A DNA stretch of 56,498 nt, the filler included, from Stramenopiles sp. TOSAG23-3 (lineage: Eukaryota), in assembly GCA_900128585.1 (NCBI GenBank). It is 6 parts of 6 records of this genome, joined end to end, with 100 filler letters (N's around TTAATTAATTAA, not from the genome) between each part and the next. Parts side by side here need not be neighbours in the genome. Positions count along the whole stretch, not along the records: positions 16,924 to 33,744 come from LT642477.1; 5 more parts are not named here. One strand, written 5' to 3'. Position 1 is the stretch's first letter. The number at the start of each line of letters is the position of its first letter. The notes below the pieces were generated by a model that was not told the origin of the DNA, ran no database searches, and saw only the letters and a program-made list of their open reading frames with translations. The translations under genes and the position numbers were made by a program. Positions 16,824 through 33,680 of the stretch are shown one piece after another.

Positions 16824-16923
16824 NNNNNNNNNNNNNNNNNNNNNNNNNNNNNNNNNNNNNNNNNNNNTTAATTAATTAANNNNNNNNNNNNNNNNNNNNN
16901 NNNNNNNNNNNNNNNNNNNNNNN
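16824..16923. other. Artificial assembly gap linker
   Basis: 44 N + TTAATTAATTAA (stops in all six frames) + 44 N, identical at five sites. Confidence 0.98.
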
Positions 16924-17023
16924 GGATGAAAGAAAGAGTGTAAATCTCAAACAAATCAAACAGAGAGATGATGACCAACAACAACAAAAAAAGAACAACA
17001 ACAACAACAACAACGACGAAGAG

Positions 17024-17282
17024 AAAGATAGAAGAAGAAGCAAAATTGATGAAGGAAGAAAGAAGAAAAGAAGAAGAAGAACGAAAACAAAATTGATGAA
17101 GAAAAAAGAAGAAAAGAAGAAAAGAAGAAAAAAAGAAAGAAAAGAAGAAAAGAAGAAAAGAAGAAAAGAAGAAAGAAAGAAAAAAAGAAAAGAAGAAAAG
17201 AAGAAAAGAAGAAAGAAAGAAGAAAGAAAGAAAGAAAAAAAGAAAGAAAAAAAGAAAAGAAGAAAAGAAGAAAAGAAGAAAA

Positions 17283-17323
<41 letters not shown>

Positions 17324-17346
17324 AGAAAGAAGAAGAAGAGGAGAAG
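17024..17346. repeat. Polypurine GAAA/GAA low-complexity tract
   Basis: About 320 nt of GAAA/GAAGAAAA repeats. Confidence 0.95.
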
Positions 17347-17965
17347 TTCTTCCTTCTTCTTCTTCCATCTTCCATCTCATTTCATTTCTCATCCAAATCA
17401 AAAAAAATAATCGAAAAAGGAAGACGAAATAATTATTAAAATCTAAAATGTGATGTGCGTAAATCTAAAATCCCTATTCCTATATAAATAATCCAACAAT
17501 AATATAAATTCAGTGCTAATTCTAATTCTAGATTCTTCGATACACTTCGGAAGAACTCCAACCATATCACATGATTATTATATGAACTAAAAAAACAAGA
17601 TTTTTAAAAATATAGAAGAGTCTTTCTTTCATTCATTCATTGATTCTTCTTCTTTTCCTTTGCTATTGTGCTGTTGTGTTCTTGCCTTGAAGAAGAAAAA
17701 AAGAAGGAAGAAGTAATATATAAGTGTAATCTCCTCCTCCTCCTCTTTCTTCTCTTTTTTTAATAAACAAAAAACAAGCGAATTACGTTTATACATGTAT
17801 ATAATTATACTTTTTCTTTTCCCTTTCTTTCGTTTGCTTCTATGTTTCTTTTTAACACCTGTCTATCACTCTTGCTCTTTTTGTCATTTTTTCTCATCAG
17901 CACTGTGCTGTATTGTTAGGGAAACGGTATAGATTCGATTCCAGATACGAAATACAATATATAAA

Positions 17966-19684
17966 ATGGAAGGTTACGCGAGCCGGTTGTTGAACGGGTT
18001 CGATACTCCGTCTCCAAGTGATAGTGGGGGGGAGGAAGAAGAGTATGATATGGATTCGTTGGCGTCGGGGTCCAGTTTTAGTTCGGGGGACGAGGATAAC
18101 GACGCTAGATTAGGCATACGGTCGAACCCAAGCGACGACGAAGAGGGAGAAGAGAGCATGCCCCACCCGGCGTGGACGGAAGACGGCCAATACGAGGGCG
18201 ACGGCTCGCTTGGGGAGGAGAATACCCCCCTGCCGCCTGGTACCTGCTGCCTCTTCTCCGAATCGATCGAGAACTTTCGGTTCATTTGCACGTTTGGTGG
18301 GCTCAGCGTGCTGATGTTGCTCGTGTCCGCGTTTGCGTTTTTGTTGGTTTCGAAGGAGGAGGAGAGCATAGACATTTCTTACTTTTACGTGTGGCTCCCC
18401 CTGTTGATCTTTGCCTCGATTGTTTGCTGCGGGGCGACCTGCCTTGCCTGCTGTTTGCTTGGGGATTTGGAGGACGAGGACGAGCAGGAGGCCACGCGCC
18501 GGCGCGACAAGGCCAGCGGTGTGTGCGTCGGGATATTTTGTATTGTTGTCCCCTTGTTCATCACCATCCAGTTCGGCATGTCCTTCACCGTTGCGTACCA
18601 AACCCCCGTGCTGCTGTTCATCCCGCAAATCATGTTCCCGGGCCTCGTCTTCCTAGGCGTCACCCTGGTGATGTGTTTCAGTGATTTGGACGGCTTGGAC
18701 CGTTTGATCACCATTGTGCTCTGGCTCTTTACAACTGCTTGGATCTTGACTCTCATGTTCATCCCCTTGAAAATAATGCACGCGTTGCCCTGGAGCTGGT
18801 GGAAAGCGGTGGCCCCGTCATACTTGTTGGACGCGTTCATCTTTCTCGCAACCGTCAGTGGTATGAAAAAGGCGCAGCGGGACGGGAGAGGGCGTCGCTG
18901 TGCCAGCTTTTTGTCCTTGTTCTTGTTTTGGTCGGCCCTGTTTGCTACTAAAATCATCGGCATCACCACGGTGGCCCCGTTGTGGCTGATATACGCGCCC
19001 GTCTCCCTCATCGGCCCCTTCTGCGCAGTGCTTGTCCCGATGTTGTGCCTTGTCCAGCTGTGCTCCAGGCGACGGTTTTACAAGCGATTGAAGACGGAGG
19101 AAAGAAACCGCAGTGCGTGGGAAGAGAGCAAATTGGTCCTCGACCGCGCCGTGCGTAGTATGAAGTTCGACAGCGACGATGACGAGTTTCCTGACGGCGG
19201 TGGCGATACGTACTACGAAAGCCTCGAGGATGGTCGCCAGAACGTAGAAAATGGCAATGCAAAGAGGACGGCAGTGAAGCCGAACAGCTCGGCTTACCTC
19301 GACGCCGGCGGGGAGGGCAGCATGCAACGCCCCCTGCTTCTTCCGGCAGGTACCCCGAAGGTGAAAGTGGTGGACCCCCATGAGGAGTACGATCATGGAA
19401 AGTTGCGGTTTGAAAGCGCGTCGTCGAAAGAAGATTTGGTCAGTGCGATCGTAGACTTGAGGGTTCTGGTTCAGCAGCATGCGAAGACCTTGCGAACGAA
19501 GCGTTACAAACAAGAATTAATATTTGCTGGACAATTGAAAAAGAAAACCTCCCAATCCTGGGACAATTCGGTTGCCAACCAGTTTGGAAAGCTCATCAAT
19601 AGTTTCAGCAAGGTTCATTCTGAGATGGACCATTTGAAGTATTTGGGGAAAGACGCTTGGAGTGCGATGAAAGATTTAGTGTGA
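17966..19684 (+). CDS. Multi-pass membrane protein, TMEM185/TMEM60-like
   Basis: 572-aa ORF with an acidic N-terminus and ~8 hydrophobic helices. Repeated aromatic-x-x-V/I-x-x-P motifs (YFYVWLPL, WSWWKAVAP, LWLIYAP). Confidence 0.65.
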   Translation: MEGYASRLLNGFDTPSPSDSGGEEEEYDMDSLASGSSFSSGDEDNDARLGIRSNPSDDEEGEESMPHPAWTEDGQYEGDGSLGEENTPLPPGTCCLFSESIENFRFICTFGGLSVLMLLVSAFAFLLVSKEEESIDISYFYVWLPLLIFASIVCCGATCLACCLLGDLEDEDEQEATRRRDKASGVCVGIFCIVVPLFITIQFGMSFTVAYQTPVLLFIPQIMFPGLVFLGVTLVMCFSDLDGLDRLITIVLWLFTTAWILTLMFIPLKIMHALPWSWWKAVAPSYLLDAFIFLATVSGMKKAQRDGRGRRCASFLSLFLFWSALFATKIIGITTVAPLWLIYAPVSLIGPFCAVLVPMLCLVQLCSRRRFYKRLKTEERNRSAWEESKLVLDRAVRSMKFDSDDDEFPDGGGDTYYESLEDGRQNVENGNAKRTAVKPNSSAYLDAGGEGSMQRPLLLPAGTPKVKVVDPHEEYDHGKLRFESASSKEDLVSAIVDLRVLVQQHAKTLRTKRYKQELIFAGQLKKKTSQSWDNSVANQFGKLINSFSKVHSEMDHLKYLGKDAWSAMKDLV

Positions 19685-19864
19685 ACGCGTGTATGGCAGG
19701 CGCTCCCTGTATAACCGCGTATGATTTTACGTTTGTGAAAAACGTTTTATTATTATTTGGTTTTAATTAATCTGCAGCGTCGTGGCGTCCTCTGGCCCTT
19801 TCCAATCCCCTCCCTCCATCTCTCTTGCGGAATTCCACCGCTTTAAACGTATCATAACTTAACG

Positions 19865-20983
19865 CTACCATCGGTGCCAGTTTGTGCCTTTCCGTTTTGC
19901 AAGTTGAAACGAGGTTTGTCGCCCGTACCCTGCTTCACTAAGACGCTCATGTTTGAGTTTCTTGTACTTTTCCACCCTCTCTCGAAGTTCCTTCTCCACG
20001 GGGCTTTCTCTTCCGTTTCTACGAGTCGATGCTTCGCGCATGCGGGAAGGCGACTTCCCCGCTGGCTTTATGCACCCGCTGTCGACAGTTTTCTTCATGG
20101 CCGACATGGGCAATGGAATCCTTGCTGCAAGGTCGGGACTAGACAGTTTCCGGGACTCCCTGCTCTCAACGCTGCGGGGCGACTGGCCGCTGTTCACGGA
20201 ACGAGGCTTTCGCTGAACCCCTCGCAGCTCATCCATAAGTTCCAGAAGCTGCTCTATCACCAAAGTTAGGTTCGTCATGATAATGGCCGCGAGCTCGTTG
20301 TCGGGCGACTGCTTCACGCTAGTCTTTAGATTATACGCTAACCCCACCAACCCGATCTCCCGGCGCACCAGCATGTCCACCAGCAACGAATAACTTTCCC
20401 TGACGCGCTTGTAGAACCTGTCGTCATTCGATCGCATCCGTTTGATCGATGTGACCAGGCCATCGTTCTCTACCAACGATTCAATCAGTATTCGCTGTTC
20501 TATTTTAAGCTCCCCCATGACGGCCTCCATGTTGTCGGCCCGCTCGGTTTCCTTCTCCCCAAACGCTTGGCTTTCTTTCAATTTTTGCTCCAGTTCCTTG
20601 ATTCTATTGTCTCTCCTTCGCACTTGAACTTCCAGGTTCGACACGACGTTTGCTAATTTCGGCCCCCTGCGCCTCTTTTCACTCGAGAGGCTGAATGCCT
20701 TGCTTCTTGGGGGCCTGTCCTTTTCAGGGGACACGGAGAAACCGCCTTGCCCAGAACCTCCAAGGTGGTAATAAGCAGTCTCGCTAGGGGCTTCTTGGCG
20801 TTCTCTTCTATGTCCTTTTTCCCTATCGACAACTTCGTTCCACGCAGCTGTGCGACCATTGTGCAAGGGCGTAGTCCTTAAATCTTTCGCGTTATTTACA
20901 AAGTGGTTCTTTCGCTCTGCGGCATTGCTCTGCGTCGGACGCATATACCTAGGCGTCCCGCCTCGGGACCAAGGTTTTTTCAT
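19865..20983 (-). CDS. Coiled-coil protein of unknown function
   Basis: 372-aa ATG ORF in GC-balanced DNA. Heptad-rich centre. N-terminal PRYMRPTQS resembles PxYMxPTxS motifs of microtubule-associated proteins. Confidence 0.75.
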   Translation of the reverse strand: MKKPWSRGGTPRYMRPTQSNAAERKNHFVNNAKDLRTTPLHNGRTAAWNEVVDREKGHRRERQEAPSETAYYHLGGSGQGGFSVSPEKDRPPRSKAFSLSSEKRRRGPKLANVVSNLEVQVRRRDNRIKELEQKLKESQAFGEKETERADNMEAVMGELKIEQRILIESLVENDGLVTSIKRMRSNDDRFYKRVRESYSLLVDMLVRREIGLVGLAYNLKTSVKQSPDNELAAIIMTNLTLVIEQLLELMDELRGVQRKPRSVNSGQSPRSVESRESRKLSSPDLAARIPLPMSAMKKTVDSGCIKPAGKSPSRMREASTRRNGRESPVEKELRERVEKYKKLKHERLSEAGYGRQTSFQLAKRKGTNWHRW

Positions 20984-21954
20984 TTCAGACTTGGAGGGGC
21001 GGGGGGAAGTTTAATAAACGACGGGGAGAGGATAGGAGGTTTCAAAAATCGAAATATATATTCCTAAACGACCGTTCAAATAATGATGCAACTCCAAGAA
21101 GATGAAATAAGAAATGCAGAGATGACCATATGGGAATCAAACACAAACAAACCATCACAATCATCAATAATACCGCCGCCGCCGCCCTCCTCCCCGCCCC
21201 CTTTATATATTATCTTCTTTCTTTTTTAAAGGAGTTTCTTTTCGATTATTATAAAAAAAAGTACAATATTGTTGTATCCTATTATTTTATATAATTAAAA
21301 GATTAAAAGTATACCAATTTGTACTCCTTCATCAATCACGCACACCCCAAGAAGAAGAAGAAGAGGAAGAAAGAAGAAAGAAAGAAGAAGAAGAAGAGAT
21401 CATTTTTTATTAATAATTCTTCTTCTTTTTTTTTTAAATAATTTTTTTTGTTATTTGTTTTTTTGTTGTTGTTGTTGTTGTAGGGAAGCCCATCATCTTC
21501 TTCTTCTCGGCTCAGGAGGAGCACAGTGAGGAGAAACAAATGAGATATTTTATTAAATATAATAATATTTTATTTTTTTTTATTATTATTATTTAATTTA
21601 AAAAATTAATATTAATATGTAAAAAGAAAAGAAAGAAGAAGTAGTAAACAAAAACCAACAATGTAAAAAGAATTAAGATTGAAAGAGAAAACGTTAATAT
21701 GAATTTGTGATATAAACTAACGATATATTGAATAAGTAATTTTATAAATAAAAAACGTTTATTGTTGAATAGTTCTTTTTGCTTACAGAGTTTACATCAA
21801 TTGGTGGTGTACAACAGGTAGACGTGGAACGCAGTGGGTCGGGTGCCGTACTTTTTGTCAACGGTGCACAGGTTGGTTATATTATATAACGGAAGGGTGG
21901 AGAGATAAATAATTTCTTTACACGAATCAACTGGATTGCAAACGGGTAAAAAAG

Positions 21955-24900
21955 ATGTCTGATTCCCCACAGAGAGTAGAAGCAGAGGGCGAGGAAGACG
22001 AAGGAACGACCGGGCAGTTGTTCGATACCCTGCTTGCTTCTGTCCCTGAAGTAGGGATGGAGCTTCAGGAAATGTCTAGAGAAGCAGAGCTGCTAGAATC
22101 ACTCCCCACGGTGACGGAAGAGGACGGTCTTTCCGGGCAACTTTACGCAGACTTGCAGACAAAGTACGATAAACTTGGCTCCTTTATAAGACGGGCCGGG
22201 GACAAAGTGGAATCCTTCGGAGTGAACCAGTTAAGGCTCATGCTGAAAGTAAACGATAAAGTCAGCAACGCGTTGAACTTTCACCGAAAGGTACAAAACA
22301 AGAAAGAATTTGTGGGAAAAGACCATCAAACGCTTCTGGCGATGCTTCGTGAGGAAGACAGAGAAGGCAAATTTAGAGCAGCAACTGAGTTGGGGCGCAT
22401 AGCATTAGAGCCGTCAAAAGCAGCGGGCATCTTAAACGGGGGCGGTCTGCCTCCTCTTGTATATTCTTTTTTGGACGCGTTCGACCGAGGTTGGACTAAT
22501 TTACAAGTTGCCATTGGTCGGACCGTCACCCACTTAGCATTTGTAACGGCCCCCACCCTCCCAGTCTACTCTTCATCATTCGGGTGCGAGGTGGAAGCAG
22601 TCCTTCAGGCTGTTGTATATTTTCAAAACAGCACCCTGGGCCGGGTGGATCAGCAGTGCGTTGTCGCCCAAGCACTCGCAAACTTGTCGTACTGTAACGC
22701 GAGGGGCGGAATGTCTGAGACATCGGCCCGGCACTTCCGGCACGTTGCCACTCCGATTGTATTAAAATTATGCGCCAGGGACTTAACGTCTACCGATGCC
22801 ACCTCGAAAATTGGCAACGTAGTCCAAACGGGGGAGTTGAAAGTAATAGGCGTAGAAGTGGGGGGCCAAACAGATGAAAACGAACAGGAGGAGTCGACGT
22901 ATTTACAGGTGGAAACACGTTGCTGGGCGTACGTTGCGATGGTGTACGTGCTCTTCGGCAATTCATGGGGAGACGTTACAGATAACATTAACTCCATTGT
23001 CCCCCGCCTCTATGAGGGGTTGGAAGATCGGGACGAAGAGGTGGTACGGCATGCTGCGAATTGCACGGCAAACCTGTGCTCGTCAATGTCAAACGAAAAA
23101 GGGGCAAGCGACAAATCCGGGGGGTACTTCAGGGGTTACATGGAAGCAAAAATTGTCTCGTCTGGTATGCTCACAGCGTTAGTTCAATTGGCAACGTCGA
23201 CGGACAGTGCCACGCGGCGACACGTTGCGTCGGCCCTGTCCTCGCTGGCAGAAAACCGGCAGATTCGGCGACAAATAGTCGAGGCCGGAGGGTTGCAAGC
23301 GTTGGCGTCGCTGGCATCCTTGTCTATCCCATCGGACGTGGTCTGGGGCGCGAATGCAGACGTTGCGGCTTCCCCCATTGAGCACAAAAAGATTACGTCT
23401 ATCCGCAGAAACAGCAAGACCCCTTGCACGGTGTGCGGCAAAAACATATGCTCTTGCATAAGAAAGGCCATGAGCGCTGGGAGCGCACGAAGCGACAGCG
23501 GGAGCGACGATATACGAGCGGCGAACTCTGGAACCGCAAAGCTAGGAACTGAATGCGAAGGTTCTGTAGCACTCCCACCGTCCCAGCTGAGGGCGATGCA
23601 AGAGTCGGCCAATTCTACGGCAACGCAATTGTCGGTCGCCATTGCAATGGAATTGTTAGCCAAAGACGAGCTCTACGGTCTAGAAGTTAGGAAGATGATT
23701 GTGTGCACAAGTGCCGTGCATTCGCTGTTAGCCCTGATCAATGTTGCATCCGCAAGCGTAAGGTACCATGCCATGAAAGCCTTGAGCCACTTGAGTGAAA
23801 CCGTCGAAACACACAATACGCTGGTAGACTATCTCGATCGGCTACTTCGAAGCGTTGAAATCAGCAACCAGACCTCCAAAAGTCTCGCAACCATAATTGC
23901 AAACATAGCAACGTCAGGCAATAGTAGCAATGACCCTGCTGTCAAAGCATACAAAGCCCGGATCGTATGCTCAGGAAACATTTTGCCTGTTATTTTGACT
24001 CTTGCGCAGGATGGCATCGATATCAATAAAGCCTCAATCGGCGATGGGGACAATGTCCAGGAGGACAATTATAAGTCTCAGGAAGCCAAAGAACTGCACA
24101 AACAAGCGATTCGCGCTTTGTCTGGTTACCTTGATATCCTTTACGCACGTAATTCAGAGCCAGAAACGACTGCAGATATATTGGCGCCTCCCACGCCTGT
24201 GTTGAAACGGTCCGCCAGTGCCCCGGTGCCCACGAGTTCAGAGAGAGAAACTCGCTTGACACTCGATGCAGTAACGTCACCGGTAAAAGGCCTGACAAAG
24301 CCGGAGTTTTTGGACGTGCTAGACATCCTTATTGTGTCGTTGCAGTCCATCCACAGTGACGTTCGATGTGAGGGATACAGCGCGCTCTCCCATTTGGCCA
24401 AGGAACCCAAACACCATAATAAAATGGTTTCATTAGCCGGGCGCTACCTCATCTCTCCGTTAGGGGCCGACCCGTTGGACCATCGTCTCTCAGAATGCCG
24501 AAAGTACATCGAAGCAACCCTGGTGCACCTGGGGTTTGACCCTTCCTCGGACATACAATTGTGCCAGTTTGACGCTACCCTGCTGGAAAATTGGCACATG
24601 ATTAATAAGCGTATCAAGGTCCAAGACAAACTGGAAGAAAAAATCAGAGCCTTACTGGAAGATGTGTGGCACCATTCTCCGGTTCCGGAGCCCGAATCTG
24701 AAACGCCTCCGGGACAAATGACTGCAAGTGAGCAAGAAAGAAAGGGTTCACCTCTGCAAAAAAGCAACAGCGAGAGGTCCAGTTTCTTCTCCCCGTCCAC
24801 ATCTACAAGTCCGCCACCTCAAGGCAAACAGGCCAACGCGCATCCTAGATCAGAGTCTCTGCTGGATGTGTTGTTTGGAACCGCTTCAAGCGATCTGTTT

Positions 24901-27900
24901 CAGCGCACCCGCCGACGGTCGTCCACCCACGAGACAACATCGTGGAACGATTATCTGCGCTCTAACTTAGCACATGACGGGTCTACCTTGTTGCCTGGCC
25001 TAGAAAAGCGCGCACTGATCGAATTTGTTGGGTATTACCCCTCGCTGCTGCAGCAGCGATTGCTGTTATTCTCTCCCGACCGTGGTCCGTTGGACGATTT
25101 CCCGCACTCACGGTGCATTGTAATGCCAAAACGGGATTACTACACGTTTCGGTATGGGGATATTCTGCAGAAAACAGTCGAGCGATACTATGGCATTGCC
25201 GATATCTGGTCCATCCTATTTACAAGGTGCGACTTTAGCCGAAGGTTTGCGCACCATTTTTGCGAGGCTCTCTACCGGCTCCCGTCTGTCAATTTTTTGA
25301 CATTTTACAACTCCCCAAACACGCCAAAGCCGCAGGCAGGGGAACAATTTGTACAGATTTTAAGCAATCTTCCCCCATTCGTCGGTTGGATAAACTTTGA
25401 CAATGCCCTTCACCCAGAGGACTTGCGGGAAATGATGATTCCTTTGTCGCGGTCTGGAGTTTCAGGGATTGCTATACGAAATTCTAACTTTTCGGCCGTG
25501 GATATGAAGCCACTGTTTGACATACTGAAGCACAATACCGAACGACCGGACGTAATGGCGTCTAGTAAGCCGATCCCGGCACGATCAGGGGGCGGTAGTA
25601 TCCCCGCCCAGCCAGCATCACCTCATAATTCCACTGCCCCGCCTTCCATAATGCAAGTTGGGTCCGACGGAAGCGTATACCCAGTCGAAGCCCCGATTAG
25701 GCCCGGAAATGGGATGTCAGTCGTGACATCAGAAGGGATTGTCAGCGACATGGTCACAAGCACAGCAGTTGCAATTGAGAGAAGGGGGGACACGTCCCCG
25801 CATATGCGCCCAAGAAAACCGAGCGATCCGTCTCCAATATCCCCGTTTGCATCACGGGACCGAAAAACTACGGGTGATGAGGCGAAGGTTACTATGGCGA
25901 CCATTCCGCCCATAATGCTCGAAAACAGTTTCAATCTTTCCGGACAAAACGGTGTGTTGCGTTGGCTGGATGTTTCTGGCAATAACTTAGGTGACAAGGG
26001 TGCCGCCGAGCTCATCGGTATTTTGGCAAAATATCCAAGCATCGTAGCATTAGACATGTCCCGAAACAATATTCGAAATGGTCACGCGTTCACAAAAGCC
26101 CTTTGTGACGATGGGTCCGGTCTTTTTGATGCGAAAACGTCCGTTTTGGAAGCGTTGATTCTGTCCGATAACCAACTAGGTGCACGCACGTGCGAAATCA
26201 TTTTAAAAAAGTTGTGGCACCTTGCCTGCGTTAAAAGCGAGGAAGAACACGGGCTTCTGACGCTTGATCTGTCCATGAACGTTATGCAGCAGGCGTGTCA
26301 CAGTCAAGCAATCAATGACTTGATACTGGCCGATGGAACGCTGCGAGATATCAATTTTGAAGCTTGTAAATTGACAAAATCGTGCATGGAAAAACTGAAA
26401 GTTACGATTACCAGGAATACCACGTTACATTTTCTGCGGCTGGACGGAAATGAATACGACGTAAAGAGCATGGACAACGTGCACCATATTCTGAAAGAGA
26501 ATCGTATGCGATGGGCACAGTCCGTCCATCAATACGATGGCAAAGATGAAATGGAGACCATTCCCAAAGCACGGGCTTTTAGTGGTAACGATGAACCGAC
26601 AGCCGTTGCAACAGATGGTGTTGTACCAGCGAGCACCGGCGATTCGCGCGGTGGGAAGGGGGTGAACGACGAGGCCAGAAAACCGGCAGGAGAGCAACTG
26701 CTTGCTGTTGGTAAAAAGAAAGAAACGGACGTGACAAAAGAAGACGACAACAATACCCTGCCTATTCTTGGTGTCCTCTTCAGCGCCCCATTGGTGTATC
26801 TCGATAGTGTATCTGGTACCATAAAGCCAATGTCCATGCTTGACTTTGACCTGGAAAGAATGGTCGTAGAAAACGTTATCCGCACTAGTCGCCGACGTAT
26901 TGAACTGATGTTTGAGTATGCGTCCACCAAGACGTTGCGAAACATGGTGACGTTGGGTTACCAAGCGTTGCACTTTTCGGGGCACGGTTCTCCCGACTCA
27001 TTGGCGTTCGAAGATGACCGTGGCGGCCTTCATATTGTCCCAAATAGGCAATTGCGATCCCTCTGCTCTGCGGGCTCATCTGCTTCAGGAAAGAAACACA
27101 GGGGGGTAAAGTTTGTGTTTGTCTCAGCGTGTTTTTCTCAAAGTGCTGGCGAGGCCTTTGTAAAAGCTGGTATTCCCCATGTGGTATGCGTAGCCCTTAA
27201 TTCTGACCTCCTCGATCGCGCGGCGCAGACGTTTACCCATGCGTTTTACTTATCTCTCGCAGTCGGTGACACGATTCAAGATGCTTTCGATGTCGGGGTG
27301 GAAGCTGTAAAAGCTGCCCCACGCATGGCAAATCCAGTGAATGAGGGAAACAAATTTCTCTTACTGCCTCCGGGTGGAAATCATGACGTTGCAATATTTT
27401 CACAAGCGCCAAAACGGGCCGTCAAGCCCAAAGGATTATCCAGAACGTACTCTGGCCGCCAACTCACCCGCACCAACTCTGGGAGTTTTGGCGATTATAC
27501 GAAAATGTTACCTTCCGTCCCTGACAATTTTTTGGGGCGCAACGTAGACATGTACATTGTCATGGGGTACGTGAAAGAACGCCGTTTGGTAACAATTCTA
27601 GGGCCATCCGGTACAGGCAAGTCCGCCCTAGCAATTGCCACGGCAAACTATTTGGATGCTCGACAGTACTTTACCGACGGCGTATATTTTGTTCGTTTGG
27701 ACCGCGTGTCTGCCGAAGGGGACCAGCTGGAGTCTGTAATTCTAGAATCGCTTGGGTACGAGTCTACTAAACGGCGGCGTTTGGTGTCTGCTATGAAGAA
27801 GAAGTCTATTCTTTTGGTCTTGGACCAGCTAGACTCGGAGTTGGCACAATCTAAATCTTTTCGTTTCTTGATTCACACCTTAATGGATCAAACACGGACA

Positions 27901-28200
27901 AATATATTGTTTACGAGCGAGAGCAAAATTGGTCTTGGCGGCGAAACCGTGCATTCGTTGGGGCCATTGGCAGAGGAAGACAGTGGTCGTTTGTTTGAAC
28001 TCCGATCAAACTACCAATGTCGTGAATGGCTTTCGCTTCAAAAGATTTCCAAACAGCGGCTAGGCCGGGTTGTCTACGAAAACTGCAAGGGCAACCCCAC
28101 CAAGATTCTGGACTTTGCTCGGGATATTGACGAGGACGGACTGAAATCGAAGTTTTCCTCCACTCCTACGAGCAAACCGGGTAGTGTAAAATTAATTTAA
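21955..28200 (+). CDS. GAT-like + ARM repeats + RI-type LRR + CHAT (caspase-clan) protease + STAND/NB-ARC-like NTPase
   Basis: 2081-aa ORF. LMLKVNDKVSNAL (GAT-like). ARM repeats (IVEAGGLQALASL and others). LRRs (LRWLDVSGNNLGDKGA, LEALILSDNQLG). CHAT LHFSGHG (26968-26988) and VSAC (Cys 27130). FLGR, Walker A GPSGTGKS (27601-27624), Walker B LLVLDQLD (27811-27834), CKGNP. Confidence 0.9.
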   Translation: MSDSPQRVEAEGEEDEGTTGQLFDTLLASVPEVGMELQEMSREAELLESLPTVTEEDGLSGQLYADLQTKYDKLGSFIRRAGDKVESFGVNQLRLMLKVNDKVSNALNFHRKVQNKKEFVGKDHQTLLAMLREEDREGKFRAATELGRIALEPSKAAGILNGGGLPPLVYSFLDAFDRGWTNLQVAIGRTVTHLAFVTAPTLPVYSSSFGCEVEAVLQAVVYFQNSTLGRVDQQCVVAQALANLSYCNARGGMSETSARHFRHVATPIVLKLCARDLTSTDATSKIGNVVQTGELKVIGVEVGGQTDENEQEESTYLQVETRCWAYVAMVYVLFGNSWGDVTDNINSIVPRLYEGLEDRDEEVVRHAANCTANLCSSMSNEKGASDKSGGYFRGYMEAKIVSSGMLTALVQLATSTDSATRRHVASALSSLAENRQIRRQIVEAGGLQALASLASLSIPSDVVWGANADVAASPIEHKKITSIRRNSKTPCTVCGKNICSCIRKAMSAGSARSDSGSDDIRAANSGTAKLGTECEGSVALPPSQLRAMQESANSTATQLSVAIAMELLAKDELYGLEVRKMIVCTSAVHSLLALINVASASVRYHAMKALSHLSETVETHNTLVDYLDRLLRSVEISNQTSKSLATIIANIATSGNSSNDPAVKAYKARIVCSGNILPVILTLAQDGIDINKASIGDGDNVQEDNYKSQEAKELHKQAIRALSGYLDILYARNSEPETTADILAPPTPVLKRSASAPVPTSSERETRLTLDAVTSPVKGLTKPEFLDVLDILIVSLQSIHSDVRCEGYSALSHLAKEPKHHNKMVSLAGRYLISPLGADPLDHRLSECRKYIEATLVHLGFDPSSDIQLCQFDATLLENWHMINKRIKVQDKLEEKIRALLEDVWHHSPVPEPESETPPGQMTASEQERKGSPLQKSNSERSSFFSPSTSTSPPPQGKQANAHPRSESLLDVLFGTASSDLFQRTRRRSSTHETTSWNDYLRSNLAHDGSTLLPGLEKRALIEFVGYYPSLLQQRLLLFSPDRGPLDDFPHSRCIVMPKRDYYTFRYGDILQKTVERYYGIADIWSILFTRCDFSRRFAHHFCEALYRLPSVNFLTFYNSPNTPKPQAGEQFVQILSNLPPFVGWINFDNALHPEDLREMMIPLSRSGVSGIAIRNSNFSAVDMKPLFDILKHNTERPDVMASSKPIPARSGGGSIPAQPASPHNSTAPPSIMQVGSDGSVYPVEAPIRPGNGMSVVTSEGIVSDMVTSTAVAIERRGDTSPHMRPRKPSDPSPISPFASRDRKTTGDEAKVTMATIPPIMLENSFNLSGQNGVLRWLDVSGNNLGDKGAAELIGILAKYPSIVALDMSRNNIRNGHAFTKALCDDGSGLFDAKTSVLEALILSDNQLGARTCEIILKKLWHLACVKSEEEHGLLTLDLSMNVMQQACHSQAINDLILADGTLRDINFEACKLTKSCMEKLKVTITRNTTLHFLRLDGNEYDVKSMDNVHHILKENRMRWAQSVHQYDGKDEMETIPKARAFSGNDEPTAVATDGVVPASTGDSRGGKGVNDEARKPAGEQLLAVGKKKETDVTKEDDNNTLPILGVLFSAPLVYLDSVSGTIKPMSMLDFDLERMVVENVIRTSRRRIELMFEYASTKTLRNMVTLGYQALHFSGHGSPDSLAFEDDRGGLHIVPNRQLRSLCSAGSSASGKKHRGVKFVFVSACFSQSAGEAFVKAGIPHVVCVALNSDLLDRAAQTFTHAFYLSLAVGDTIQDAFDVGVEAVKAAPRMANPVNEGNKFLLLPPGGNHDVAIFSQAPKRAVKPKGLSRTYSGRQLTRTNSGSFGDYTKMLPSVPDNFLGRNVDMYIVMGYVKERRLVTILGPSGTGKSALAIATANYLDARQYFTDGVYFVRLDRVSAEGDQLESVILESLGYESTKRRRLVSAMKKKSILLVLDQLDSELAQSKSFRFLIHTLMDQTRTNILFTSESKIGLGGETVHSLGPLAEEDSGRLFELRSNYQCREWLSLQKISKQRLGRVVYENCKGNPTKILDFARDIDEDGLKSKFSSTPTSKPGSVKLI

Positions 28201-28260
28201 ATCAAACATTTAATCTCAACAACTAGATTCTTATTAAAGTCCTTTTTTAGTTAATGTTTT

Positions 28261-28287
28261 AAAAACAAAATTATGGCTGTTATTTTA
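28261..28287 (+). repeat. Element A copy
   Basis: AAAAACAAAATTATGGCTGTTATTTTA, 60 nt after the stop at 28200. Confidence 0.75.
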
Positions 28288-28309
28288 ATCATATTTAATT
28301 TTAATTTAC

Positions 28310-28790
28310 GTACTTGGAATCTACGACCTGCCGTCGCCACAATCTTTATGTGGACTGTAGCGAGACACTGTCTTAAAGCATCAGCATCGGTACTTTGGCG
28401 GGCCCTGCTGAGGCACTGTTCAAGTTCAGCGCCGCGCCTACTCTCCTCAGCTGCAGCTGCAACATACCAAATTACTATAATCCATAACACACTTTCGGCA
28501 ATAGCGAGTGCCACTCGTGTCTGAGATAACAATCCCAAGTGCCGGCGCCGATCCGAGTATCTCGCCCCATTGGCTCCGCCACTACTTACAGTCGAAGCGC
28601 CGAGCACGTTCTTGGCAAAGGCCAAAGAAATCGTGGAAGAAACGGCTCTGCTGCCGATGTGATTTTGTTTTTTATGCAGTTACATAAGACTGTCTTCTTT
28701 TGTATGTCCGAAGTGGTAGAAGAGGAGACGGGGGGCTTCGGCGGTAGGACGGACGACCTTAACGCTTGCCGTAGTATGGGATACTTGGTA
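28310..28790 (-). pseudogene. Possible degraded gene remnant
   Basis: GC-balanced, coding-like stretch between AT-rich flanks. No long ATG-initiated frame; protein-like pieces are interrupted by stops. Strand uncertain. Confidence 0.3.
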
Positions 28791-29508
28791 CTACTACATA
28801 TTGGTTATTTTTTAATGCTATTTCATGGTTAATGCATCATATTGCCATGTTGTTTACCCTAGGTATAGGAATCATATAATCTAAGTTGTTCCTAACGCTA
28901 GACGACGACGACAACAGTATGGTGTGACCAAACGTGGCGCGTCAATTACGAGGAAATAAGTCTGTATCTTTTCTTATTATTACGGGACATCTTTGGATAG
29001 ATACAACTAAGTCACTATTAGTAACACTATTATTATAATTGTTTTTCTAAAAAAAAAGTCCGATGACGAAAGTAATATTAATATTGAATAGCAGCTACTT
29101 CACTTTTATTTTACAATCTACGCCGATTGAATAGGCGAATTTCGAAAACGATACAATTATCTGTACTTCTTGCGGTTGCAGGAAGGGAACCCGCGAATAA
29201 TAGTTAGACCCAGTGCACACATTTATTGGTAACATACCCTGAATTGATGGATGGTTTCGGTCCAGTGCAAAACTTACTCAGCATAAAACTCATGTTTTTT
29301 CTCAGTGCTTTTCGTTCTGTCAACCTTGTGATAATCTGTAGCAGAGATCATGCTTGAGTCTGAAAATTATGGAGGAGAGTTCTGGGGTCGAAGAGAAGCT
29401 AACAACTCTTTGCCAAGACGGAGAAGGGGAAGTTATTGGAAACGAACTAAGGAAAAAAAGACTGCTCACTGGAAATGGACGAAAACTTTTAATTTTCTAC
29501 TGGAGGAA

Positions 29509-31002
29509 ATGATGATTGCTTCAGAAGGTGAGATTGTTCCACCTGATTCTGTTGTATTTTGGAAAGCTTGCTATGCAACAGTTGTTTTTCTTGTAGGCGC
29601 ACTTGCTCTTGGGGTTGTTGCAGTATTCTTCTTTTGGACAAAGTTGGAAGTTGCAACAGAAACTATTGAAACCCCCACTTACGAGTGGTTCCAGACACGG
29701 GAAGATGTAGGGTTAATTTGTCCTTGTGTAGAAACTCAAATCCAACTGAAATCTTTTGTTTCTATGAAAGTGATTCCGTGGGAATCATGTGCATTGTACT
29801 CACAATTACTCACTGCCGTTGGTCAAGGCCTGCAGGCAAACCTTGAATCGACAGCAGCTTTCCTTCACATTGCAGAAAATTGTAAACAAGCAAAGAACTT
29901 TGCAGAACAAGATATGGTACTGATGAGAAATTCATACATAGATTCTGTCGTTGCACTCACAAGCAAACAGTTAAAAACGCGCGTAGATATATTTGTGAAT
30001 AGGACAAAGAATATTAGAGAGCAAGCATATTCACTTTCGTATCAACAGATTACTAGCAAAACGCTTTTAGATACACAACACGGATTCAAAAATGATGTGA
30101 GACTATTCAATCTTGGGAGAAAGGGTTGCCCAGATTGTACCATTAAATCGCCAAATGGAAACCCAGTTTTGGACGATTCGTTTTTCGTTGAAGGCAGTAA
30201 TTCATCATGCTGTTACAATGATTATAGCTGCATTATTAGTAGACCAAATTGGACAGAAGCTTGTGTTCGTATACTGACAAGGGGTGATACAAGCGTTTTT
30301 GGCGAGCAAGTAAGCAATTTGTTTAAATTCAGTGGATTTTGTACAAGATTAATTGTGCACCCTCGTCGACATTTAGTGGATGTACCATCGCGCTGTTCCG
30401 AATTTTTGTTTTTGCAAGAGTATCCCACAAATGCATTAAACACACTGCTAGAGGTATATCTTCAGAAACCGACAGTCCCTATCAACAGTGAAACATTTGG
30501 CGAGGCCATATCCAAAGGAGAATTGGCCCCTGTTAGTTATACTGTCGCAAATGAAGCATACTATGACACATGCAAACCATTAAAGTGTACGTATTTTGTG
30601 GAGGATTTTACTTCCAGAATGATTCAATCCTTGGCACTGGCGTTCGCTCTTGTCATACCCGTAATGAATGCTATGAAAATCACTGTTGTTAAAGCATTCA
30701 ATGCTATTCCAGACAGTTTTTTCTCTGAAAAAGTGCAAAGGGTCAGATCAAAAACAATCGAATTGGCAACAACCAAAAACCCGTTACAATCGGGCACACA
30801 GAGAAGGAGTACCGGAACAGTGGGAGCTGAAGAAACGGAAAATCCTGTCATAAAAAAGAGTTCAAAATTACAGCGTGCCTCAATTGTAACGCTGGAACAC
30901 ACAGACCAATGGCTAGAGTTAGTTGATGACGAAAGTTCCACGCCGTACTATCATAATGTACAAACTGGTGTGACGCAGTGGGAAAAACCCAAATGTTTTT
31001 GA
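29509..31002 (+). CDS. Two-TM protein with Cys-rich extracellular loop and C-terminal WW domain
   Basis: TM1 (VVFLVGALALGVVAVFFFW), LICPC, YYDTCKPLKCTY, TM2 (LALAFALVIPVM), WW domain WLELVDDESSTPYYHNVQTGVTQWEKP. The frame is open from ATG 29350; 29509 is my preferred start. Confidence 0.8.
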   Translation: MMIASEGEIVPPDSVVFWKACYATVVFLVGALALGVVAVFFFWTKLEVATETIETPTYEWFQTREDVGLICPCVETQIQLKSFVSMKVIPWESCALYSQLLTAVGQGLQANLESTAAFLHIAENCKQAKNFAEQDMVLMRNSYIDSVVALTSKQLKTRVDIFVNRTKNIREQAYSLSYQQITSKTLLDTQHGFKNDVRLFNLGRKGCPDCTIKSPNGNPVLDDSFFVEGSNSSCCYNDYSCIISRPNWTEACVRILTRGDTSVFGEQVSNLFKFSGFCTRLIVHPRRHLVDVPSRCSEFLFLQEYPTNALNTLLEVYLQKPTVPINSETFGEAISKGELAPVSYTVANEAYYDTCKPLKCTYFVEDFTSRMIQSLALAFALVIPVMNAMKITVVKAFNAIPDSFFSEKVQRVRSKTIELATTKNPLQSGTQRRSTGTVGAEETENPVIKKSSKLQRASIVTLEHTDQWLELVDDESSTPYYHNVQTGVTQWEKPKCF

Positions 31003-31277
31003 GCAGAGAATCTTTCCGCCAGAGAAAGAAAACCACCAGAAGTTCATATAATTTCCCACATCATGTCGTTCATTGTTACAAAAACAATGCTGTGGTGATA
31101 TTAATTACTTTGGTGCTATGGGTGTGATACATAATGGTAAACAAATCTTTTAACTACGAGTGAAAATGTAAACTTGTACTAATTTACATACATGATTTGG
31201 CATGCAAGTCGAAGAAGACTTTTTTGGTTAAAAAAATATTAGTTTCTTCGTCATTTTATTTATTATTACCTGTTTAT

Positions 31278-31427
31278 TTACGACCCGCCGCCGCCACGAA
31301 ACCGCAGCAGCCGGCGCCGCTGATTCCCCACTTTCTCGTCCACCTCGTACCCCACAAACTGCCCGTCGCCTTTCAAGGTAAAAGTCCACTCCTTGTACAC
31401 GAATGCCAACGGTTCCACGCGCCTACT
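31278..31427 (-). pseudogene. Orphan C-terminal coding fragment
   Basis: GC-rich island reading SRRVEPLAFVYKEWTFTLKGDGQFVGYEVDEKVGNQRRRLLRFRGGGGS*, preceded by an in-frame TAG. Confidence 0.45.
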
Positions 31428-31518
31428 CTAGCTGAACAACATGGCAAATACACACGGAAGTAAAATATACTTGTTTATACGTAAGTTTATTCTGTAAAAA
31501 TGTTAAGAGTTTTTTAAC

Positions 31519-33009
31519 CTAGAAGACCAATATCATTACTGCTGCTGCGAAAGTAGGCAATAACCAGTATTGTACCGGACGAACGGCCCCGCTTAATAGA
31601 TTGCCCTTTTTCACAGTTGTGTTGGCGTTGGTAGCAGATGTCGTTGAAGTGGAAGCTGCTGTAGTAGTTGAGGTGTTGCCTGCACTGGTGGTCGTGGTGT
31701 TGCCTCCGCTTGTCGTCGTATTAGGAGCTTCAGTCGAGGTCGTGGTGTTGCCTGCACTTGTTGTCGTCGTAATAGGAGTTTCGGTCGTCGTCGTAATAGG
31801 AGCTTCCGTCGTGGTCGTCGTAGTAGGAGCTTCTGTCGTGGTCGTCGTAGTAGTAGCTTCCGTCGTGGTCGTTGTTGGTTCTTGCGTTGTTGTGGCTGTA
31901 AGAAACGGGTTGTAGTAAAAGGTGGCGTAGCCTTCGTCACTATTCCACACTTGGGCACCTACCATAGCTGTATCTTCACTCAACGCTACTGAACCCCCAA
32001 AATTACTGCTTGTTTCTCGACCGTCAAATTCTTCTGTAGCAAACCACCCACTTGCATTACGCTGATAAAAAACTGCATAACCTGTACTAGACGACCAAGT
32101 CCATCCACCAAATAAAATAGTGTTGCCAGAAATTGCTATAGAACCTCCAAATTTACTGGATGTTCTTCCAATTATATGAGCTTTTTCCTGCCACCCACTT
32201 GCATCCCGCTCATAAATTTTAGCGTATCCTTTACTAGAACTCCACCCAATGCAACCAACAGCAACTATATCCCCATGAACTGCAACAGCAAAGCCGAAAT
32301 AGTCCAAGGATGATACTCCCGGCCCAAGAATTTCTGTTTGTTGCCAAACGCTTGAGTTGCGCTCATAAATATAGGCACGACCTTTTCCTGAAGAATATTT
32401 CCAAGCACCTATGACAGCTGTATCTCCATTAATTGCTACTGCATGGCCCAATTCTTCTGTTTCTGTTTGCAATCTGAGAGTCTCAAACCACCCACTGGCG
32501 TTACGCTCATAAAATTTTGCATAACCTTGTCTACCATTCGACGGCCAATGGTTACCACCTGCAACTACAGTATTTCCGTCAACGGCAACAGAGTTTCCAA
32601 ATCTGCTGTCTGATGTTTCCCCGTCAAACCTTGCAGCTTCGCTCCACCCAGAGGTATCACGCTCGTAGATTTTAATGTAACCTTTTTCGGTACTCCACTT
32701 ACGAGCACCAACAACAAGTATGTCGCTGTCGACTGCAACAGAAACACCAAAGTTAACACCCGAGTCCCCTGTTAATTGTGCAGTCTGTGACCAGAGCGTC
32801 AAATTACTGGAATTACGTTCATATATAGTCACTTCACCGTCTCCATAGTATCCGCCTATGGCTGCTGTATTACCATCAATCGCACACCTGCCAAAGTATT
32901 TGTTAGATGAGCCGCCATAAAATGTAGTTTTACTTGTCCATGCTGGTTCACTGCGTTCAATGCAAGAACAGACAACTAGGAAAATTGCTAGAATGGTATT
33001 TGGTTTCAT
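31519..33009 (-). CDS. Cell-surface FG-GAP beta-propeller protein with Thr-rich mucin stalk and probable GPI signal
   Basis: Signal peptide MKPNTILAIFLVVC. Seven repeats of FGxSVAVxGDxxVVGA...GYAKIYER. TTTTEAP repeats. C-terminal LSGA...hydrophobic tail. Confidence 0.9.
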   Translation of the reverse strand: MKPNTILAIFLVVCSCIERSEPAWTSKTTFYGGSSNKYFGRCAIDGNTAAIGGYYGDGEVTIYERNSSNLTLWSQTAQLTGDSGVNFGVSVAVDSDILVVGARKWSTEKGYIKIYERDTSGWSEAARFDGETSDSRFGNSVAVDGNTVVAGGNHWPSNGRQGYAKFYERNASGWFETLRLQTETEELGHAVAINGDTAVIGAWKYSSGKGRAYIYERNSSVWQQTEILGPGVSSLDYFGFAVAVHGDIVAVGCIGWSSSKGYAKIYERDASGWQEKAHIIGRTSSKFGGSIAISGNTILFGGWTWSSSTGYAVFYQRNASGWFATEEFDGRETSSNFGGSVALSEDTAMVGAQVWNSDEGYATFYYNPFLTATTTQEPTTTTTEATTTTTTTEAPTTTTTTEAPITTTTETPITTTTSAGNTTTSTEAPNTTTSGGNTTTTSAGNTSTTTAASTSTTSATNANTTVKKGNLLSGAVRPVQYWLLPTFAAAVMILVF

Positions 33010-33680
33010 TATTGTCGAATGATTCTTCGTTTGGTAAATATCCTTCCACTGGTAGCAAAACCACGTCCGTTTAAACTCTCTTTTTTTGGTTCGCAGGTGT
33101 TTTCTTGTAAACAGATAATGTTTATTATTGTCATTATTATTTAAAACACTGTAAAACAACAGATATTAAGCAACACTTAGGTACGTTTCGCGCCACCTTT
33201 TTTCTTTTCTATATCAATCAGTGCTACCTTTTTCTCTGAATAACCTTGTGTTCCAGAAAATATGTCAGGATCGATTTGCAAAGGAGAAACTGAGAAACTG
33301 GAAACTTGTCGACCCTCCGCCAACACTGTTGCGTCGCTGTTGTTTGCTTTAAAAAAAAAATAGTAATGTAAAAAAAAAATTATCAAAGGACACTATTGCT
33401 TATTATTTCACTGCTGCTGCTGCTCCCCCTAGCCCCTCTTCCATTTTTTTACTTTTATGTTGGCAATATAATTTAGGTGTTTACCGGTACCGGTAGTCGC
33501 TTATACTAAGAGAGAATCCTCCCTTTTATATTTGTATCAAAAACAGACAGAAAATAGTCGTCTTCCTCCTCACTTTTATTATAATAGTATAGTAACAGCA
33601 ATACACAAACTCCTCACAAAAAAAGGAGAAGCCCGTCCATCCCACCACAATCATACAGCATATGATGCTCTGGGGAAGAA

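Follow-up and report, generated by a model that had tools for sequence, protein, structure and literature searches.

A CHAT protease and a shortened STAND NTPase behind ARM and LRR repeats: a stramenopile protein on a permuted NLR-like plan

Introduction

What kind of molecule carries its repeats first, a caspase-like protease behind them and an NTPase last, and then ends? The question is raised by a gene at positions 21955..28200 (+) of a 56,498-nucleotide stretch of DNA from Stramenopiles sp. TOSAG23-3 (assembly GCA_900128585.1). The whole stretch is called the window here; it consists of six parts joined end to end, and the gene lies in the part taken from record LT642477.1 (positions 16,924 to 33,744). 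In the encoded protein of 2081 amino acids (aa), ARM repeats are followed by a split leucine-rich repeat (LRR) array of the ribonuclease-inhibitor (RI) type, a CHAT protease domain, and the nucleotide-binding domain (NBD) and helical domain 1 (HD1) of a STAND NTPase, with which the protein ends. On balance the protein is probably, though by no means certainly, a regulated CHAT protease on a permuted NLR-like plan, in which nucleotide-dependent self-association would activate cleavage, most plausibly in cell death or immunity.

Domain organization of the protein

An earlier interpretation, made from the DNA alone (the sequence-only reading), had reported one open reading frame (ORF) of this length, a set of short motifs and this order of domains, and translation bears out all three. 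The motifs are HFSGHG (aa 1673-1678), VSAC (1723-1726), FLGR (1859-1862), GPSGTGKS (1883-1890), LLVLDQLD (1953-1960), FTSE (1986-1989) and CKGNP (2044-2048). Its calls of ARM repeats, RI-type LRR, a CHAT domain with an intact dyad and a STAND NTPase are right, with support from Pfam, a profile of the family, the fold predicted by AlphaFold2 (AF2) and Foldseek. The features on which the argument depends are listed below with their positions in the window; pLDDT is the predicted local distance difference test score, and nt stands for nucleotides.

21955..28200 (+): whole gene, an intron-less ORF of 2081 aa with its TAA stop; from translation, colinear RNA-library contigs and AT-rich spacers on both sides.
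22123..22344 (+): N-terminal helical segment, aa 57-130, for which the label 'GAT-like' is unconfirmed; shared with the orthologue cluster only.
22360..23364 (+): ARM/HEAT repeat block 1, aa 136-470; Pfam Arm at aa 400-432 (30.1 bits, gathering score 20.6), HEAT_2 at 27.3 bits and, weakly, Vac8 at aa 125-171.
23635..24159 (+): ARM-like helical block 2, aa 561-735; weak Pfam matches only (TPR_TNPO3_IPO13_3rd at 585-654, Arm_2 at 592-639) and 52% identity to the orthologue.
24292..24672 (+): helical segment, aa 780-906, that leads up to the LRR and is conserved; modelled by AF2 as helices throughout (pLDDT about 70-93 in blocks of 10 residues), with 60% of its residues identical in the orthologue.
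25105..25545 (+): LRR block 1, aa 1051-1197, five beta-strand/alpha-helix units; AF2 pLDDT about 80-96, 78% identity to the orthologue.
25546..25953 (+): disordered Ser/Pro-rich insert dividing the LRR, aa 1198-1333; pLDDT below 50, 34% identity to the orthologue.
25954..26514 (+): LRR block 2, aa 1334-1520, six RI-type repeats; LRR_6 match at 1335-1352, and Foldseek.
26752..27420 (+): CHAT caspase-like protease domain, aa 1600-1822; from Pfam, family profile and fold, 80% identity to the orthologue.
26983..26985 (+): codon of the predicted catalytic His1677 (HFSGHG); invariant in 20/20 aligned relatives and in 44/44 of the same layout, right after model strand 82-86.
27130..27132 (+): codon of the predicted catalytic Cys1726 (VSAC); invariant in the same 20/20 and 44/44, right after model strand 131-135.
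27511..27954 (+): STAND NBD, aa 1853-2000; Walker A at nt 27601-27624, Walker B at nt 27811-27834, TSE at 1987-1989.
27955..28161 (+): HD1/ARC1 with GxP (G2046-N-P2048, nt 28090-28098); five helices at model positions 418-480, pLDDT above 90.
28162..28200 (+): 12-aa low-confidence tail and stop codon; neither a winged-helix domain nor repeats, and an RNA contig that ends at 28214.

A Cys/Ser-rich linker of low conservation (aa 471-560, 27% identity to the orthologue) lies ahead of ARM-like block 2, and a linker of about 30 aa joins the CHAT domain (1600-1822) to the NBD (from 1853). The end of the protein is 33 aa past Pro2048.

A single intron-less gene

The ORF at 21955..28200 (+) is uninterrupted, closes with TAA and has AT-rich non-coding DNA on each side. 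Part of the gene stretch is held by 20 public sequencing runs, 14 of them recorded as RNA. Four RNA-library runs from three studies were aligned to the gene stretch; their contigs are colinear with the ORF, 42 of 46 at an identity of at least 99%, and no joints are reported within it, some portions of the ORF being without a contig in a given run. The region 26344-28214 is spanned free of gaps by a single contig of 1871 nt, which runs from about 400 nt before CHAT through CHAT and the NTPase to 14 nt past the stop; assembled contigs of this kind are not informative on transcript ends. The sequence-only reading had taken the ORF for one gene rather than two, and a contig that bridges CHAT, NTPase and stop upholds this.

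Downstream of the stop no further exon was found in 28201-29349, where all three forward frames are filled with stops (15-21 per frame). A tblastn search of 28151-31100 with 28 C-terminal tails from canonical or extended relatives gave a best match of E 0.04. The unusual order without a C-terminal sensor, another early claim, holds. The CHAT-NTPase module occurs once within the window. Relatives lend independent support to the gene model: an orthologue of 2063 aa aligns over 99% of the length with 57% identity, and the layout of the 2081-aa protein recurs in transcriptome ORFs that their sources mark as 'type:complete'. Because the layout is kept in orthologues and many relatives, it is no assembly accident. 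The ORF is a real, expressed gene of an uncultured marine stramenopile.

CHAT protease domain

The single-sequence Pfam match to CHAT (PF12770) spans aa 1593-1777 and scores 24.8 bits against a gathering score of 24. The family profile, built from 30 module sequences, gives a much broader view: its CHAT half matches the SAVED-CHAT protease structure 8tl0 at E 2.4e-14, and the CHAT Pfam match is found at E<=1e-3 in 19/20 same-layout relatives. An AF2 model of aa 1590-2081 made with the same alignment, which covers the CHAT-NTPase module, has a pLDDT of 88.6 and a predicted template-modelling score of 0.87. Its CHAT half superimposes on 8tl0 with Z 25.5 and a root-mean-square deviation of 2.0 Å over 198 residues, at a sequence identity of 17-20%. 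Other structural matches of this half are DdvA (Z 15.0), whose entry is titled transmembrane anti-sigma factor, and gingipain R (Z 14.2).

The modelled domain is predicted to have the caspase-like alpha/beta fold of CHAT proteins (clan CD), with H1677 of GHG and C1726 of SAC placed after strands as a caspase fold would have them. We take these two residues to be the catalytic pair, given their place in a caspase fold and their alignment with the HxxGHG and NAC motifs of 8tl0. The intact His-Cys dyad noticed in the sequence-only reading is kept in 44/44 relatives in which the module comes last. The domain is thus assigned, by its sequence and modelled fold, as a caspase-like CHAT domain of clan CD with an intact predicted catalytic His/Cys dyad. 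The identity of 8tl0 as a SAVED-CHAT protease is taken from the available part of one preprint.

STAND NTPase domain

The second half of the module behaves in a similar way. Pfam NB-ARC matches aa 1875-2051 at 23.5 bits against a gathering score of 23.5, and two further NTPase families stay below threshold (NACHT 23.2 against 26.7, nSTAND1 22 against 27.1). The profile check on which the sequence-only reading had staked its CHAT and STAND assignments is passed by both domains, in Pfam and with the family profile. The NTPase half of that profile matches AfsR (4.6e-10), the wheat NLR Sr35 (1.4e-9), MLA13 (9.6e-9) and Apaf-1 (1.7e-4). In the model, the NTPase half aligns to Apaf-1 residues 108-347 with Z 16.2, and the top structural matches of model residues 243-485 are Apaf-1, ZAR1 and CED-4; RPP1 and NRC proteins superimpose likewise. 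Scans with PADLOC and NCBIfam returned generic P-loop matches only, far under their cut-offs.

The motifs of a nucleotide pocket are in place. Walker A (GPSGTGKS, with K1889 and S1890) and Walker B (LLVLD, 1953-1957) are both present, D1957 being invariant in 20/20 relatives. An hhGR motif upstream of the P-loop is a hallmark of STAND proteins; here it is FLGR at 1859-1862, and R1862 is found in 44/44 module-last and 26/26 module-first rows of the alignment described below. In the 20-member alignment the Gly of the GxP motif (G2046) does not vary and its Pro (P2048) hardly does. HD1/ARC1 is modelled as a five-helix bundle that aligns to Apaf-1 as far as residue 347, the end of HD1 in Apaf-1. 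Between HD1 and the stop there are only 12 low-confidence residues, so a winged helix has no room. On this evidence from sequence and model, the C-terminal domain is assigned as a STAND (NB-ARC-like) NBD and HD1 with intact Walker A and B. The sequence-only reading had placed FTSE at sensor-1; the position is right, but the residue there is Glu1989, where 16/26 canonical relatives have Arg.

N-terminal repeats

The middle region, aa 780-1520, was modelled with AF2 on an alignment with 23 same-layout relatives. Overall pLDDT is 67.8, the ordered parts being mostly at 80-96. The model is helical over 780-906. Eleven beta-alpha units follow, five of them at about 1052-1195 and the other six at about 1335-1520, on either side of a disordered insert of about 135 aa. 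W905 in the helical segment is nearly invariant in same-layout relatives (20-member alignment), and F1098 in LRR block 1 is invariant in 20 relatives. Pfam LRR_6 remains sub-threshold in this protein (16.2 bits against 23.4) and is found at E<=1e-3 in 15/20 same-layout relatives. The two LRR blocks jointly match NLRP2, NLRP9 and ribonuclease inhibitor in Foldseek, at E 7.5e-7 to 6e-6 and with alignments of about 450-520 columns, and the LRR is therefore one split RI-type horseshoe. ARM profiles are found in some same-layout relatives (ARM_ARMC5 in 3/20, Arm in 4/20).

Identity to the orthologue differs by region: 80% in CHAT, 78% in LRR block 1, 72% in the NBD, 68% in LRR block 2, 58% in HD1, 52-56% in the ARM blocks and 23-34% in linkers and inserts. 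It follows that the protease, the LRR and the NBD are all under constraint, and that the LRR is not the fast-evolving part of the protein.

The sequence-only reading also saw a GAT-like bundle near the N-terminus and, through it, a link to endosomes or phagosomes; this part of it finds no support. Pfam gives no GAT match in the 2081-aa protein at E<=1. In the orthologue P0003 GAT reaches 20.4 bits against a cut-off of 31, and it is seen at E<=1e-3 in 2/20 relatives (best E 5.1e-4). A phmmer search of aa 1-335 against PDB sequences at E<=10 found weak Vac8 only and no GAT structure. In the ESM Atlas, aa 40-135 matched phage small-terminase clusters at 0.92, with a recognition value of 2040 against a mark of 2300, which is taken as chance. 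A two-sequence hidden Markov model of the segment, run against all stored proteins, found the orthologue cluster only, other matches having E>=0.2.

Family, layouts and tree

The module was searched for with aa 1500-2081 as query, exhaustively, against 1.84 billion cluster representatives. At E<=1e-3 the query matches 21,174 proteins, and at E<=1e-30 it still matches 356 representatives. Most members of the family come from marine records; automatic database names include 'NACHT domain-containing protein' and 'B30.2/SPRY domain-containing protein'. By its sequence kinship the 2081-aa protein is one member of a family of hundreds and not a singular system.

An alignment of 154 modules was made from the best 150 matches and those of an earlier search, two rows being dropped (an identical copy and an over-long match). 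Layout was assigned by flank length: module-last rows end 0-130 aa past the point that corresponds to the end of the 2081-aa protein, and module-first rows have at least 300 aa after the module. On this basis 44 rows are module-last, two are module-last with a longer tail, 26 are module-first (the canonical layout) and 82, too short or ambiguous and in many cases fragments, are unclassifiable. Named sources of the module-last form are the stramenopiles Triparma (Bolidophyceae), Mucochytrium quahogii (Labyrinthulomycetes) and Platysulcus tardus. Those of the module-first form are Thermoanaerobaculia and Cloacimonetes metagenome-assembled genomes and Amorphochlora, a chlorarachniophyte (rhizarian alga).

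The two layouts also differ in the domains around the module. Among 20 module-last proteins scanned with Pfam, CHAT is found in 19, NACHT in 16, LRR_6 in 15, Arm in 4, SPRY in 3, GAT in 2 and a protein kinase in 1; among 25 module-first proteins, CHAT is found in 22, TPR_12 in 13, NB-ARC in 12 and SH2 in 3. The N-terminal platforms of same-layout relatives vary: P0004 (3384 aa) has SPRY, PDZ and ARM, SPRY occurs in 3/20, and a kinase and an HA (helicase-associated) domain in one each. P0015 from Mucochytrium, of 2466 aa, shares the layout. Such variety points to domain shuffling ahead of an LRR-CHAT-NTPase core that stays constant.

A careful tree (IQ-TREE, LG+C20+F+G4) was computed from 38 full-module rows with unambiguous layout. 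One branch separates module-last from module-first proteins with support 99/97, and all 200 of the bootstrap trees examined (100%) contain it. The CHAT-NTPase module of the module-last clade is placed as sister to canonical CHAT-STAND-TPR proteins, which come from bacteria and from other SAR eukaryotes. A quick tree of 72 rows has the same split (Shimodaira-Hasegawa-like approximate likelihood ratio test, SH-aLRT, 92). The trees are unrooted and their midpoint falls inside the module-last group; they show one layout change without giving its direction. That the canonical layout came first is the more likely course because it is the widespread form, and this does not come from the tree.

Conservation of the two active sites differs between the layouts. 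The His/Cys dyad is kept in 44/44 module-last and 25/26 module-first rows. The Walker A Lys is present in 20/44 module-last rows (Arg in 18, Cys in 2, Ser in 1, with 3 gaps) against 26/26 module-first rows, and Arg at sensor-1 position 1989 in 14/44 against 16/26. The Lys substitutions are concentrated in one sub-clade with support 95 in the quick tree and 100/100 in the careful tree. The 2081-aa protein lies outside it, with Lys1889, Ser1890, Asp1957, Arg1862 and Gly2046/Pro2048 kept and Glu at 1989. The sub-clade, which includes P0005, P0026, P0032, P0046, P0048, P0056, P0058 and others, has Arg, Cys or Ser in place of the Lys and keeps the dyad; judged from these residues, it is a candidate natural series of pseudo-NTPases.

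Proposed mechanism and alternatives

If the preferred account is correct, the protein may work as follows. The N-terminal LRR and ARM repeats would bind a conserved partner or restrain the protease and, by analogy with TPR-CHAT proteins, gate its active site. Nucleotide binding at the C-terminal NBD-HD1 would promote self-association, as in CHAT-STAND-TPR proteins and Apaf-1/CED-4. The CHAT domains would thereby be brought close together and the cleavage of downstream substrates switched on, with regulated cell death or immunity as the most plausible output. Because the ADP clamp of the winged helix and the sensor-1 Arg are missing, the classic off state locked by ADP could not work as it normally does; control is probably exerted by nucleotide binding and the N-terminal repeats, and a cycle of ADP/ATP exchange and hydrolysis is less likely. 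The sequence-only reading had spoken of a 'self-contained sensor/oligomeriser'; this went too far for an NTPase without these two elements and for an LRR conserved at 68-78%.

A wider proposal is possible, and we offer it tentatively. It holds that there is an as yet undescribed class of death or immune proteases in stramenopiles in which a CHAT-STAND module of bacterial type has lost its winged helix and C-terminal sensor and sits behind an N-terminal platform of LRR and ARM repeats (with SPRY, PDZ or kinase domains in some members). The NBD-HD1 would serve as a nucleotide-gated oligomerisation handle that has decayed to a pseudo-NTPase in about half of the class, the protease staying under strict selection. 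If true, NLR signalling would here have found a new solution, with the sensor in front, the switch at the end and no ADP clamp.

Several observations weigh against the account given above. The CHAT and NB-ARC Pfam scores of the single sequence sit exactly at threshold; it is the family profile and the fold that give confidence in the two domains. Only 1-2 Z units separate the STAND matches from ORC/Cdc6-type AAA+ proteins, which score lower. Sensor-1 position 1989 is Glu (TSE) and not Arg, and there is no winged-helix domain (ARC2), the confident model ending with the fifth HD1 helix at model residue 480. The Walker A Lys is replaced in 21/41 of the module-last rows aligned at that position, and the class as a whole thus tolerates a crippled NTPase while the protease stays. 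An LRR that is 68-78% identical between orthologues is unlike that of a diversifying pathogen receptor. The RNA support consists of assembled contigs from RNA libraries, which can contain DNA. Finally, an immune or death role is plausible solely by analogy with related architectures.

Part of this evidence is also what speaks for a rather unlikely but serious alternative, that the protein is a scaffolded protease whose NBD-HD1 is a non-switching remnant of a CHAT-STAND-TPR ancestor. That remnant would be a structural or nucleotide-binding appendage without a part in driving oligomerisation, and the repeats would hold a partner or substrate in position and gate CHAT allosterically, in the manner of TPR-CHAT proteins (Csx29, TTC28) or of separase-type proteases. 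The loss of the Walker A Lys alongside a dyad kept in 44/44 fits such a remnant, as do the missing sensor-1 Arg and winged helix of the 2081-aa protein itself and the fact that LRR and CHAT are its most conserved regions between orthologues. Repeats ahead of CHAT are, moreover, conserved in metazoan TPR-CHAT and CRISPR Craspase, according to the available portions of the published accounts. The nucleotide pocket, however, does not look abandoned in every member. GxxGxGK[ST] and the Walker B Asp are kept in the 2081-aa protein and in P0003, P0004, P0007, P0009, P0012 and P0015; the NBD is 72% identical between orthologues against 23-34% for linkers; and none of R1862, D1957 and G2046 varies among the 20 aligned members. 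Taken together, these findings point to selection on a nucleotide pocket.

It is improbable that the protein is instead a housekeeping, non-immune regulator, for example of the cell cycle, cytoskeleton, flagellum or membrane traffic, in which LRR and ARM bind a fixed partner and proteolysis is a processing step. Strong LRR conservation, a full-length orthologue at 57% identity and RNA-library contigs in runs of several studies would all suit such a role. So would a Pfam scan of nine neighbouring ORFs that found no gasdermin-like or other death-effector domain. Some fold matches of the RI-type LRR are axonemal proteins (Foldseek ranks 24, 25, 45, 46 and 50), but these reflect the generic LRR fold only. 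Against a fixed housekeeping role, the N-terminal additions vary (SPRY in 3, kinase in 1 and ARM in 4 of 20, PDZ in P0004) as they typically do in shuffled conflict-type proteins. Among canonical proteins, the closest kin are those of CHAT-STAND-TPR type, a class that the accessible part of the literature ties to immunity and cell death.

The last alternative is a gene-model artefact, in which two adjacent genes have been read as one, or in which mis-assembly or a missed intron has cut short a canonical NLR-like gene; it is largely refuted. In its favour, the window is draft sequence with ten short runs of N, introns can go unseen in eukaryotic genes, and a spliced gene lies immediately downstream. 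Against it, there are no Ns in or near the gene, the RNA-library contig 26344-28214 is continuous and the ORF free of joints, all 44 module-last proteins, independent transcriptomes included, have the same end point (0-130 aa beyond, by definition of the class), and no coding similarity was found downstream.

The proposed regulated protease matters for several reasons. Cell death and innate immunity of protists are poorly understood at the molecular level, and the death of phytoplankton and stramenopiles induced by viruses and grazers shapes the flow of carbon in the ocean. The 2081-aa protein offers a testable candidate: it joins a caspase-fold protease and an NLR-type nucleotide module in one chain, its gene occurs in marine RNA libraries, and it is conserved in a family of hundreds. 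A layout without the winged helix that locks the off state bears on how STAND switches work, and the loss of the Walker A Lys with retention of the dyad is a natural experiment on the need for the NTPase. The debate on whether eukaryotic death machinery has bacterial origins gains a further case from the close kinship with bacterial CHAT-STAND-TPR proteins. A sensor-first, switch-last, clamp-less design would be of note both for NLR/STAND evolution and for the field of protist cell death.

Neighbouring genes and other features of the window

A Pfam scan of nine neighbouring ORFs identified ordinary eukaryotic genes: a USP-type deubiquitinase, kinesin-3, EF-hand, FG-GAP_2, VPS9 and glutathione reductase. 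The best named relatives of the reductase, 50-56% identical, are all from stramenopiles (diatoms, Parmales, pelagophytes, brown algae and oomycetes), and the only matches that come closer, at 64-73%, are environmental sequences. The source is accordingly an uncultured marine stramenopile whose genes are poor in introns. Directly after the stop of the CHAT gene, the region 28283-28630, with an ORF at 28251..28625 (-), appears to be a separate, spliced gene, probably on the - strand. RNA contigs have loose ends at 28366 and 28587 in three runs and at 28516 in two, three of the four runs being affected. One contig of this gene has a depth of 24, well over that of the CHAT-gene contigs. The shared break points suggest that the organism has introns, although the 6.2-kb CHAT gene has none.

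Immediately 5' of the CHAT gene are ORFs at 17966-19684 (+, 572 aa) and 19865-20983 (-, 372 aa) without an above-threshold Pfam family; a weak match to the coiled-coil DUF4686 is the only one that they have. Further away, 2124-9692 (+) holds a 2522-aa ORF with concanavalin/Laminin_G_3, two UBA-like domains and a C-terminal USP-type ubiquitin hydrolase, an unusually large deubiquitinase. At 31519-33159 (-) there is a 546-aa ORF with four FG-GAP_2 repeat matches. The N runs of the window form five pairs, at 16824-16923, 33745-33844, 50622-50721, 52582-52681 and 54541-54640. Each member of a pair has 44 bases and 12 bases lie between the members, which makes 440 N in total; none is near the CHAT gene.

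Comparison with known systems

No description of an LRR/ARM-CHAT-NBD-HD1 layout was found in the literature, most subscription journals and supplementary tables being outside its reach. In the part of Kaur et al. (2021, eLife) that is available, stramenopiles are mentioned for SPRY/NPCBM ubiquitin ligases only. The sequence-only reading's 'undescribed system' accordingly stands as far as the literature goes, but not as a system apart, the protein belonging to a family of hundreds with kin among CHAT-STAND-TPR proteins. The parts are all known, and both CHAT before a NOD and repeats before CHAT have precedent. What was not found described is their combination, in which LRR and ARM precede CHAT and CHAT precedes a NOD reduced to NBD-HD1 at the C-terminus, together with this clade in stramenopiles.

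By the tripartite definition of an NLR, an effector lies directly N-terminal to the NOD, as it does here, and repeats lie C-terminal to it, which they do not. Since C-terminal repeats and the winged helix are absent, the protein is not an NLR by this definition and is NLR-like at best. Published accounts, in the portions available, describe CHAT as an N-terminal domain of bacterial NLRs, and count some fungal proteins that control gasdermins among NLR sensors, their protease domain being CHAT or S8. In Podospora, according to a source of which part is available, a TPR-bearing CHAT protease activates gasdermin.

Comparison with Apaf-1, CED-4 and plant NLRs shows a similar fold of NBD and HD1 (Z 15-16, about 210 aa aligned) and a common logic in which an NTPase stands beside, or recruits, a caspase-fold protease. 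Unlike these proteins, the 2081-aa protein has no winged helix, HD2, C-terminal WD40 or LRR, or sensor-1 Arg. Its protease is fused in cis and not recruited through a CARD, and its LRR is N-terminal to protease and NTPase. With ROCO/LRRK proteins, whose architecture is ARM-ANK-LRR-Roc-COR, it has only a general order in common, ARM and LRR before a regulatory NTPase; this is an analogy of layout and not homology. Neither Roc nor COR is among the 24 Pfam families found at E<=1 in the protein, and its NTPase matches NB-ARC, NACHT and AAA.

SAVED-CHAT 8tl0 is the best structural and profile match of the protease domain, and its solved active form is a filament, as the title of the entry states. 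In SAVED-CHAT, TPR-CHAT/Csx29 (Craspase) and metazoan TPR-CHAT (TTC28), the sensor or repeats precede CHAT, as they do here; for TTC28 and Craspase this order is reported in the accessible part of the literature. These systems differ in having no STAND NTPase, in being activated by cyclic oligoadenylate or target RNA, and in having TPR or SAVED in place of LRR/ARM.

The closest comparison is with the CHAT-STAND(NB-ARC/NACHT)-TPR proteins, 'all-in-one' NLR-like proteins of bacteria and eukaryotes. Their module is homologous and colinear with that of the 2081-aa protein, to which the tabulated canonical relatives are 34-43% identical across about 400 aa. The His/Cys dyad, hhGR, Walker A and B, GxP and the placement of CHAT directly before the NTPase are common to both. 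CHAT-STAND-TPR proteins run on into further domains and TPR (TPR_12 in 13/25), whereas the 2081-aa protein ends at HD1 and carries, ahead of the module, about 1600 aa of ARM and LRR.

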